A stretch of DNA of 64,000 nucleotides from contig CBDAVG010000002.1 in NCBI GenBank assembly GCA_965200865.1, forward strand, positions 1,097,838 to 1,161,837, given 5' to 3'. The notes beneath the pieces were generated by a model. It had not been told where the DNA came from and made no database searches. It saw only the letters and a list, made by a program, of their open reading frames with translations. This document shows, in pieces, positions 30,561 through 32,876 of the stretch (position 1 is the stretch's first letter; each line of letters starts with the position of its first letter). The DNA is from an uncultured candidatus Porisulfidus sp. Its GTDB lineage: Bacteria > Pseudomonadota > Gammaproteobacteria > Poriferisulfidales > Oxydemutatoraceae. Made by a program: the position numbers and the translations under genes.

Positions 30561-31226
30561 CCCTCATTAAAAGTATACCACAATGTCAACTACATGCGTA
30601 GGGGATGCACAAGACCATTCCCCTCCTCTAGAGAGGTAGTCGTATCGTGGAGCTATTGAAAAAGTACCGACATTGCACAAACCCAACCGCTTTGCGCCCT
30701 CAAATTTACGCAAACGGTAGGGGCGGACTCGCATGTCCACCCTAACGCGTTGCGTCTGCACAATCAATCCATTCATCCATTTCGTCTTACGCTAACCATA
30801 ATTCGGTGGCGCATGGCGATTCTATTTTTCAACAACCCGGCGTATCTACACCAGTCAATTCCTCTCCTCTGGAGAGGTGGCAGGCTTATGCATTTTGTAA
30901 TGCATGTGTTGAGCAATCATGTTGAGGTTCTGTACAGCGTCACTCCGATTGATTTTGATATACGTACTGTTTCTAACGAACACAATATTTAGATTTTGTA
31001 AAAAGTTACGCCACTTGACCTACCGGTTCAAGTGGCGGTTTCACTCGGATCAATCGGCGGTTCTATCTGACGGGGTGGTTGCATCGTATCTGCACCAGTC
31101 AATTCCACAATAGAAAATCGGTGTATGGGTTATAATGGAATCCGTCCGCAATATGCATTGGGGAGTCAAACCCCCAATGCACTTTTGGTATGACATTAAA
31201 ACAATATCATTGATTTCTTAGGCACT

Positions 31227-31490
31227 ATGGCACAACATATTTCAATCATACACTCGGAGCAGAAAGGCTTACAGAAAATCGCAAAAAGTCTCTTAGAAAA
31301 AACCTCAAGAGGGATTTGGGTAATTGCCGGGGCACTGAAATTTGAAGAGCTGCCATACCAAGAATACAAGATGAATTCTCACGACAGAGTTTTTGTAACT
31401 GAACGAAATGTGAACGGACAAAAACAAAAGTTTGAACTACATTACGATACAAAGGCTGAAAAAATACTAAATGTATTTCTCGTAAAATGA
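31227..31490 (+). CDS. Hypothetical 87-aa protein, first gene of a two-gene cassette with the PLD nuclease.
   Basis: ORF 52 nt upstream of the PLD gene; its 5' end is duplicated downstream of the cassette at 32468-32560. Confidence 0.5.
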   Translation: MAQHISIIHSEQKGLQKIAKSLLEKTSRGIWVIAGALKFEELPYQEYKMNSHDRVFVTERNVNGQKQKFELHYDTKAEKILNVFLVK

Positions 31491-31542
31491 CCTCATCCTA
31501 AAATGAATAAAGACCCTATTTAAGTTTTATCTCTAAAAATAG

Positions 31543-32460
31543 ATGTCCATACTCCTTCTCTCAAATAGCGATTATCCAATCGGCAAGATTATTAAACAAG
31601 AGCTACAAGATGCAAATAGTGTACAAATCGCCGTAGCATTTTTAAAGTATTCGGGTGTGAAAGAAATTGATAGCTCTTTGAAACAGTGCTTGAGCAATGG
31701 AGGAAATGTTGAGTTGATCGCTGGTCTTGACTTCAGAACAACTGACCCGCAATCAATTCGCTATTTTCTAGATTTAAGAAAGCAATATTGCGAAATTAAT
31801 TTTTACTGCTTTGGTGATAAAGGAGAGAATAAAACTGACGTTGTTTTTCATCCAAAGATTTACCTTTTTGAAAACCAACAAGAAAGGACAGGAATTGTCG
31901 GCAGCACAAATCTGACAAAAGGAGGTTTGATGTCAAATTTTGAAGTTAATACAATCTTTAGAGAAAAAAAACCACTTCATTTTTCAAAACTGCAGGCGAT
32001 TTATAACTCAGTGAAATTTACTGATTCAGTTTTTGCCCCCGATGAAGAATATTGGGCAAGATACTCTGATGTTTATCGTGCATTCTCTAAAAATGAAAAT
32101 CAGGCAAAAAAAGACAAAGAGTTGAAAAAAGATATCAAAGAAATACAAGACAGAGAACAAACTTTGCCCGGTACTGTTCCCTCGCTTAAATTACTAATTA
32201 TTCAGGTTATCAAGAAAAAATTGGCCAATGGTCAAAAATTTGTGCATTTAAAAGAAATTTATGAAGGAGTGGAAAAAATTATAAAAAATGAGGAGTTGTC
32301 TTACAAAATGGATACTTTACACAATACCATTCGCGGTGAACTGAATCATCATGAAGACGAAAGCAGCCTACCTAGAAATATGCACTTATTTATTCGCTCC
32401 AAAGATTTGAAGGGATACTATACCTTGACTGAAAAAGGTAAAAATTATCAAGGCCGTTGA
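31543..32460 (+). CDS. Phospholipase D-family nuclease-domain protein (Nuc/NgoFVII/BfiI-like N-terminal domain) with a C-terminal domain of unknown function.
   Basis: HxK motif HPKIYLFEN...GIVGSTNLT (HxK-x4-D/E-x6-GSxN) near aa 105. Confidence 0.6.
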   Translation: MSILLLSNSDYPIGKIIKQELQDANSVQIAVAFLKYSGVKEIDSSLKQCLSNGGNVELIAGLDFRTTDPQSIRYFLDLRKQYCEINFYCFGDKGENKTDVVFHPKIYLFENQQERTGIVGSTNLTKGGLMSNFEVNTIFREKKPLHFSKLQAIYNSVKFTDSVFAPDEEYWARYSDVYRAFSKNENQAKKDKELKKDIKEIQDREQTLPGTVPSLKLLIIQVIKKKLANGQKFVHLKEIYEGVEKIIKNEELSYKMDTLHNTIRGELNHHEDESSLPRNMHLFIRSKDLKGYYTLTEKGKNYQGR

Positions 32461-32876
32461 TCTTTCAGGCACTATGGCGTAGCATATTTCAATCATAAAC
32501 TCGGAGCAAAAGGTCTCCATAAACGCAAAAAGCCTCCCCGGAAAAACCTGTGCGATGCCAGATACATATTGGACTCTTTAGAACCTCATCTTTCCGTTAG
32601 AAAAAGTGCTTTTCTAGTGGGAAAATTCTCTCTAAATGAAAGTAGCCGACATGCAATATCAGCACATCGGCTACCGCATTAAAGTTTTTGTAACATAGCT
32701 TTTTTTCAAACCAAATGGAGGCTATGATGGCGACTAATACCAAACAAAAACTTAATGTATTAGAAGTTTGCAACAAACACGATTTAATTGCAACCCAAGA
32801 CTATGGTCTCTTTCGCTTCATTCACCCTTCCCGGTGTTGTCGGCACGCGACGAAGGCAGGGCAGCTTCTCGCACCT

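Follow-up and report, generated by a model that had tools for sequence, protein, structure and literature searches.

A probable rearranged copy of a mobile two-gene module with a phospholipase D-winged-helix nuclease in a variable hotspot of an uncultured Porisulfidus genome

We analyzed a small cassette, consisting of a short open reading frame (ORF) and a gene for a phospholipase D (PLD)-family nuclease, in the genome of an uncultured candidatus Porisulfidus sp. (Gammaproteobacteria, Oxydemutatoraceae). The DNA was a stretch of 64,000 nt (NCBI GenBank assembly GCA_965200865.1, contig CBDAVG010000002.1, positions 1,097,838 to 1,161,837 of the forward strand), which is called the window below, and L-numbers denote homologous loci in other genomes. 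Our preferred reading, to which we assign a probability of roughly 0.6, is that positions 31105-32549 of the window hold a single, rearranged copy of a two-gene module that moves horizontally, in a variable hotspot of defence genes beside rimP, and that the nuclease is most likely a solitary enzyme of type IV-like character.

An earlier note on this DNA had described an 87-amino-acid (aa) ORF followed after 52 nt by a 305-aa gene, with direct repeats of about 90 bp at the two ends and an IS3 remnant downstream, and all of these elements were present as claimed. The small ORF lies at 31227..31490 (+), the gap at 31491-31542 and the nuclease gene, which is intact, at 31543..32460 (+). The direct repeat pairs 31210-31305 with 32457-32549 at 80-83% identity over about 96 nt (blastn E 1.7e-17 within the window), and the truncated IS3-family element lies at 32877-33436 (-). 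The placement of the cassette in a variable accessory region was likewise borne out, and close relatives of the nuclease sit in defence islands. The GC content of the nuclease gene is 33-34%, compared with about 45% in the flanking housekeeping genes of the rimP-nusA-infB operon (25239-29718, -), the neighbor of the hotspot.

The assignment of the nuclease to the PLD family was upheld by profile searches. Residues 103-125 (31849-31917, +) read HPKIYLFEN...GIVGSTNLT and contain the single HxK...GSxN motif of the protein, with the signature H103-x-K105...G120-S-T-N123. The N-terminal PLD/NgoFVII-like domain (about aa 16-158, 31588-32016, +) matched Pfam PLDc_2 with 46 bits (cut-off 27; E 5.9e-12) and RE_NgoFVII with 32.4 bits (cut-off 23.8), both above the curated Pfam cut-offs, so that the HxK region does match PLD profiles. 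H103, K105 and N123 were invariant across 30 aligned homologues, and every invariant residue of the family is present in the window nuclease. The PADLOC models PbeA, DrmC, REase_II and mREase_IV matched the protein through their PLD domains only, and the closest solved structure by sequence was the PLD domain of the type IV enzyme SauUSI (PDB 7CLG; E 6e-4). The C-terminal domain, which the earlier note had left unassigned, was recognized in searches of the C-terminal half as a winged helix (about aa 212-300, 32176-32442, +). HARE-HTH or another named Pfam family was rejected for this domain, since the winged-helix matches were only weak and mixed.

Homologues of the nuclease amounted to 578 matches, and the 120 listed were all 303-307 aa in length, which excludes the case raised in the earlier note that the pair is a fragment of a larger known gene. 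Relatives were found at 315 loci in species-representative genomes with 42-80% identity; their hosts are candidate-phyla-radiation bacteria, Planctomycetota, Omnitrophota, Bacteroidota, Helicobacter pylori and archaea. The closest genome (80%) was a 'Candidatus Oxydemutatoraceae' metagenome-assembled genome. A phage or plasmid origin was rejected, because 50,697 phage and 72,556 plasmid records yielded matches to PLD domains only and no full-length relative, and a PHROGs search returned no match. Judged from its sequence, the window nuclease is a full-length, intact member of a large, horizontally spread family of PLD-winged-helix proteins.

The enzymes NgoAVII/NgoFVII, BfiI and Nuc dimerize to form one active site and cleave DNA without metal ions via a covalent intermediate. 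By analogy with Nuc and BfiI, the window nuclease, which by sequence has one HKD motif per chain, is predicted to dimerize into one shared active site, and its DNA cleavage would be metal-independent and proceed via a phospho-histidine intermediate. Enzymes of the NgoAVII/BfiI type bind DNA through a B3-like domain at the C-terminus, and NgoAVII depends on an ATPase partner as well; the window nuclease differs from them in having a winged helix instead of a B3-like domain and no adjacent methyltransferase in the window. The C-terminal winged helix would target the nuclease to DNA by reading its modification state. The substrate would be incoming DNA, and adenine methylation would be the leading candidate for the modification that is read. 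In this logic of a nuclease joined to a C-terminal winged-helix reader the protein resembles DpnI, a Gm6ATC-dependent PD-(D/E)XK nuclease. DpnI is solitary, lacks a methyltransferase and is encoded with a small gene of unknown function in the exchangeable pneumococcal DpnI/DpnII cassette; its catalytic fold is different, and the two winged helices have no detectable sequence similarity. SauUSI, whose PLD domain was the closest structural match, is an ATP-dependent protein of 953 aa with helicase and SRA-like target-recognition domains, whereas the window nuclease has 305 aa, a winged helix only and no ATPase.

The nearest described relatives by architecture are the PLD-winged-helix fusions Aba4572I and CbaI, which Helbrecht et al. 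(2024, Front Microbiol; PMC11037411; bioRxiv 10.1101/2023.06.07.544091) proposed to be type IV enzymes dependent on N6-methyladenine. That set comprises 27 members derived from DpnI-like winged helices, and CbaI was toxic in Dam+ Escherichia coli (PMC11037411). Like the window nuclease, Aba4572I and CbaI have a PLD nuclease domain at the N-terminus and a winged helix at the C-terminus of one chain and are biochemically uncharacterized. Their gene neighborhoods are similar to those seen across our family, with a methyltransferase or restriction endonuclease, the PLD-winged-helix gene and one or more hypothetical proteins.

Taking together this architecture, the literature, the lack of a linked methyltransferase and purifying selection, a solitary type IV-like nuclease that reads the state of base modification seems to us the most likely role here, although we hold this view tentatively and at less than even odds. 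No methyltransferase adjoins the module in the window, L001, L003, L086 or L087, and yet the nuclease is under purifying selection (ratio of nonsynonymous to synonymous substitution rates [dN/dS] 0.18-0.21), which is why a solitary role is favored for this lineage.

A number of observations weigh against this assignment. The published set of 27 and our 578 matches were compared by architecture and description, not by sequence. A profile built from 33 C-terminal halves retrieved no DpnI chain from the PDB at E values up to 10. The AlphaFold2 model of the nuclease had a predicted local distance difference test (pLDDT) score below 50 over residues 92-148. Counter-evidence on the mechanism came from a survey of the usual neighborhood in other phyla, in which the neighboring ORFs of 80 loci were clustered and representatives of every cluster were scanned. 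The recurrent arrangement was a same-strand array of a D12 (Dam-class) methyltransferase, the PLD-winged-helix gene, a small ORF and either an AlwI-family endonuclease or an N6_N4 methyltransferase. The D12 methyltransferase, often fused to RadC, was directly upstream of the nuclease in 32 of the 80 loci, and a Bro-N protein was present in 17. Downstream of the small ORF, the AlwI-family endonuclease and the N6_N4 methyltransferase were each found in 26 of the 80. Such tight methyltransferase linkage fits a classical or composite restriction-modification system better than a methylation-dependent role. Moreover, a Gm6ATC-dependent enzyme beside a Dam-like methyltransferase would attack its own host, a self-restriction paradox that the authors of the PLD-winged-helix study also noted (PMC11037411). 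The tetranucleotide GATC had an observed/expected ratio of 0.60 in the window, a value that can neither reveal the methylation state of the host nor decide between a type IV and a classical enzyme.

These neighborhoods are the main argument for a somewhat unlikely alternative, namely that the nuclease is a classical restriction endonuclease without its linked methyltransferase, which would cut an unmethylated specific site (for example, one with GATC) while the host is shielded by an unlinked methyltransferase, or which is a tolerated relic. In addition to the linkage with D12 and N6_N4 methyltransferases, the Pfam RE_NgoFVII and PADLOC REase_II matches agree with such an enzyme, a D12 methyltransferase is found at the same hotspot in L084, and the depletion of GATC in the window is suggestive. 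The idea that the nuclease is unusually conserved relative to its neighbors was rejected; the D12 methyltransferase, AlwI-family endonuclease, N6_N4 methyltransferase and Bro-N protein were only slightly less conserved, indicating that the island moves as a unit, which also suits a classical system. On the other hand, many of the linked loci encode an AlwI-family endonuclease, which would already partner the methyltransferase, the nuclease lacks the B3-like DNA-binding domain of the NgoAVII/BfiI type, and six module-bearing loci of this lineage, among them the window, L001, L003, L086 and L087, have no methyltransferase next to the nuclease, which is nevertheless under purifying selection. The solitary type IV-like role remains our preferred one for the window. 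Over the whole window TCGA was rarer still than GATC (observed/expected 0.37), and CATG and GTAC were not under-represented.

The small ORF belongs to a family, here called family A or the 'MAQH' family, for which we found 146 homologues and, in a set of 1.84 billion representatives, 81 clusters at 50% identity. No named protein and no Pfam match occurred among the homologues found. The N-terminal Met-Ala-Gln-His, E41, F56, E70 and H72 were invariant, and MAQH and FE[VI]H were kept even in remote members. The Met-Ala-Gln-His N-terminus itself (31227-31238; P0250-P0314) was invariant even in relatives at E values of about 1e-4. After removal of Met the protein would begin with Ala-Gln-His, which agrees with an amino-terminal Cu/Ni-binding (ATCUN) motif; the agreement may be fortuitous, or the N-terminus could be functional. 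A constraint at the DNA or RNA level on the first 23 nt of the ORF was rejected because synonymous sites vary in distant homologues, indicating that the constraint acts on the peptide MAQHISI. The dN/dS of the small ORF was 0.16-0.53. The predicted fold of the protein was weakly RelE-like, resembling toxins of that class more than antitoxins, and the protein had no DNA-binding motif; no sequence-level link to RelE, HigB or YoeB was found.

The earlier note had suggested that the small ORF is an antitoxin or specificity partner of the nuclease. Such a pair, in which the small protein neutralizes or directs the nuclease as an addiction or abortive-infection module, has points in its favor: the genes adjoin each other and are probably co-transcribed, the pair is conserved across phyla within family A, the nearest PLD relatives share the small-ORF family in 47 of 52 cases, and published PLD-winged-helix genes were toxic or not expressible in E. 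coli. The slot behind the nuclease, however, is occupied by at least seven unrelated small-ORF families (A-G), and nucleases that share 86-93% identity can be followed by different ones. The family goes instead with the next gene downstream, which is AlwI for B and the N6_N4 methyltransferase for C, D and E; in L027 family C is fused to this methyltransferase. Furthermore, family-A ORFs persist without a nuclease in L084, L085 and L089 under purifying selection (dN/dS 0.16-0.37), and the predicted fold resembles, if weakly, toxins of the RelE class and has no DNA-binding motif. The swapping of the slot and the survival of the ORF without the nuclease argue against a dedicated antitoxin or specificity subunit, and we consider a toxin-antitoxin or effector-specificity pair quite improbable. 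The small protein is probably a separate, exchangeable accessory and no dedicated antitoxin. In the post-nuclease slot of L005-L083, the small ORFs are unannotated and often overlap the nuclease stop codon by 14 nt; two of the slot families are zinc-ribbon-like (GCLYCG...YYQCEKCRGINH and CxxC...CEKCD), and in H. pylori the slot is taken by the start of a frameshifted AlwI-family gene.

The order of the two genes in the window is unusual. Outside this lineage, at nine loci (among them L004, L007, L012, L028, L033, L034, L090 and L091), small ORFs of the window type lie 2-13 nt downstream of the nuclease. L001, the 80% relative, and L081 also have the PLD gene first and the small ORF second with such a gap. 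When metagenome contigs were scanned with a focus on the lineage for the beginning of the small ORF, only two loci were added, both in the usual order. In the window, the intact small ORF occupies the non-standard place upstream of the nuclease, and the direct repeat at 32457..32549 (+) is found where the small ORF normally sits; this location identifies it as the pseudogenized 5' stub of a second small-ORF copy, about 26 codons long. Apart from the pairing 31210-31305/32457-32549, the 64 kb contained no further match to the cassette. The downstream copy, which begins 13 nt past the nuclease stop codon, reads ATGGCGTAGCAT, with TAG as codon 3, and tblastn of the small protein against it gave 65% identity over residues 1-26. 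The earlier note had offered two explanations of the repeat, a tandem-array remnant or a site-specific insertion. A former tandem arrangement agrees with these findings, whereas an insertion-site duplication or attachment (att) site does not, as the repeat is the coding sequence of a decayed copy in its normal place.

The comparison with related loci indicated how this layout may have arisen. The three-part layout of the window, in the order leader, small ORF, spacer, nuclease and stub, recurs in L003 at another place in the chromosome, and window 31109-32540 is 87% identical to L003 7539-9001; in L003 the upstream small-ORF copy is frameshifted, and the stub lacks an ATG and is ended by an element of repetitive extragenic palindromic (REP) type. 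The stubs of both the window and L003 contain GGTCT, which reads GGCTT or GGCCT in the upstream copies and GGTTT in the copy of L001, and the shared GGTCT suggests a single origin. In L086 and L087 the small ORF precedes the nuclease, and only about 10 nt of stub are left. The sequence ahead of the intact small ORF is homologous to that behind the nuclease, back to and across the nuclease stop codon (cgTTGA/cgTTAA...), suggesting the vestige of a lost upstream nuclease copy. The simplest history, which appears to explain the window layout best, would thus be a tandem duplication followed by decay. The ancestral order would have been leader, nuclease and small ORF; the unit of nuclease and small ORF would have been duplicated in tandem, and the first nuclease copy would then have been lost almost totally while the second small-ORF copy decayed, leaving leader, small ORF, spacer, nuclease and small-ORF stub. 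Under this history the flanking repeat of about 95 nt would be duplicated coding sequence and not an integration scar.

Some findings speak against a single event of this kind. The two copies at each locus share the same stop-codon variant, TGA in the window and TAA in L003, which fits either gene conversion or separate duplications. A complete tandem of two nuclease-small ORF units was found at none of the loci compared, and independent recombination between the repeats or gene conversion could yield the same layout.

A mobile cassette with a circular intermediate or site-specific recombination, or an integron-like array with hairpins as sites, would account for the circularly permuted orders (small ORF-PLD in the window, PLD-small ORF in L001) and the direct repeat at the ends of each (about 95 nt long in the window and in L003 and about 25 nt long in L001), for the presence of the unit at three or more chromosomal sites, for the hairpin-containing direct repeats of about 60 nt that flank a PtuA-like ATPase in L084 and for the nuclease ATG at the position of a hairpin loop in L085, but it is highly improbable, since the repeats are ordinary coding or untranslated-region (UTR) sequence whose limits differ between the window, L003 and L086, other lineages embed the pair in a longer operon without such repeats, no recombinase domain was seen among the genes called in related loci (only selected window ORFs were scanned for domains, and no integrase-directed search was made), and nothing attC-like was seen by eye at the repeats, where no formal attC scan was made and the only hairpin is a simple 10-bp stem.

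The module is flanked by sequences that are shared with its relatives. A leader at 31105..31206 (+), which has no second copy in the window, travels with the module and is conserved upstream of it in L001, L003, L084-L087 and L089. It contains a TATAAT box at 31131-31136 and a 10-bp GC-rich hairpin at 31154-31181 followed by CTTTTGG. This hairpin was flagged as terminator-like and may be either a terminator-like or a 5'-UTR hairpin; the whole 111-nt leader folds no better than shuffled sequence (z -1.2). The hairpin occurs only once in the window, and its interpretation as a genome-wide repeat was rejected. An Rfam scan of 29700-36200 gave nothing relevant, only spurious miRNA and snoRNA matches. 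The 52-nt spacer (31491..31542, +) is the conserved 3' flank of the small ORF and abuts the nuclease start codon. About 48 nt of it follow the small ORF in L001, L003 and L084-L086, whether the nuclease is present or absent, and its last 25 nt or so resemble the sequence that immediately precedes the ATG of the L001 nuclease.

The left border of the module is a repeat that resembles a REP element or a miniature inverted-repeat transposable element (MITE), with the core CAATCGGCGGTTCTATCTGACGGGGTGGTTGC, at 31047..31104. The window has five copies of this repeat compared with none expected, at 29780, 31051, 35940 (-), 47280 and 53466 (-), and the homology of the module in L003, L086 and L087 begins just to the right of the copy at 31047..31104, at 31099-31109. 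The same repeat also occurs in L001, L003 and L084, is located at cassette borders in related genomes and is the element that truncates the stub at the right end of the module in L003. The IS3 remnant forms the right border of the variable segment. It consists of OrfA and the N-terminal part of OrfB, including the HTH_21 part, and lacks the rve catalytic domain; the matches to NCBIfam transpos_IS3 (E 6e-12 and 1e-17) cover only model positions 1-183 of 369.

Relatives at the same site showed that the segment between these borders is variable. L085 is collinear with the window (92-97% identity) except for 31544-32834, in place of which it has two different genes encoded on the other strand. On the left the collinearity breaks exactly at the nuclease start codon and on the right at the shared truncated IS3, with homology resuming at 32835. 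In L084, the same place holds a PtuA-like ATPase, then the small ORF, a D12 methyltransferase and further genes, and direct repeats of about 60 nt of the TATAAT-plus-hairpin leader flank the ATPase (3520-3584 and 4899-4960, equivalent to window 31125-31185). This PtuA-like (Septu) ATPase has no obvious PtuB partner, and the TATAAT box contains the stop codon of its gene; in L086-L088 the small ORF and nuclease come directly after this ATPase. The module of L001 and L086-L088 occupies a second hotspot (rpe/trpE), where its neighbors are an MNT/HEPN-type pair, a PtuA-like ATPase, SIR2-HerA and a ResIII enzyme. The check for homologous pairs in defence islands that the earlier note had called for was thus positive, the relatives adjoining SIR2-HerA, PtuA-like ATPases, MNT/HEPN-type pairs and ResIII enzymes, and the neighbors at both hotspots indicate that the module is cargo in a defence island. 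The cargo next to it at the hotspot differs from strain to strain through exchange, likely via recombination in the shared flanks, with the leader or small ORF on the left and the IS3 remnant on the right.

The surrounding region, 29750-36100, is rich in long direct and inverted repeats. Three paralogous genes with a PBECR2 domain (Barnase/EndoU/colicin/RelE-like nuclease) lie within these repeats, at 29945-30361 (+), 33753-34289 (+) and 34800-35225 (-). The 387-nt arms 33784-34170 and 34811-35197, for example, are 77% complementary. Two of the three genes are shortened to about 140 aa, and the syntenic L084 and L085 have one and three such genes, respectively. A palindromic element of about 185 nt at 35496-35682 gave sub-threshold matches to Rfam 'MIR5998' on both strands and is probably a MITE-like hairpin repeat and not an RNA gene. 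A 684-aa ORF at 36109-38163 (-), which has no Pfam or NCBIfam match and is found at the same position in L085, borders the hotspot. Farther away, a 986-aa ORF at 3947-6907 (+) has an NPPY motif and weak sub-threshold N6_Mtase and Eco57I matches and is possibly a methyltransferase fusion of type IIG or of type I-like character.

A broader reading, which we regard as unlikely, combines three proposals about the family: that the PLD-winged-helix nuclease is the core of an undescribed composite island, that the MAQH protein is a new effector and that the pair is an independent module of this lineage. The D12 methyltransferase, an optional Bro-N protein, the PLD-winged-helix nuclease, an exchangeable small protein and an AlwI-type endonuclease or N6_N4 methyltransferase may form one island; if so, a nuclease that reads DNA modification would be united there with a restriction-modification pair of the classical kind. 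The MAQH protein of 87 aa may represent a new effector or regulator in its own right, able to act whether or not the nuclease is present. In the Oxydemutatoraceae-like lineage, the pair may have turned into an independent two-gene module that spreads between hotspots.

The system itself is of a known kind, a PLD-family restriction-type nuclease with a winged-helix reader that was rearranged by duplication and decay, and its importance for the window is modest: the region amounts to accessory defence cargo at a hotspot prone to recombination, with the repeats as debris of the duplication. The PLD-winged-helix family, in contrast, is very widespread and strongly conserved, and it is without biochemical characterization, the one published set of possible relatives having resisted purification. 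Its frequent linkage to Dam-class methyltransferases and AlwI-type endonucleases sharpens the self-restriction paradox known from the literature, and the slot directly 3' of the nuclease is taken by interchangeable, uncharacterized small proteins; these three points may be of use to researchers of restriction systems.

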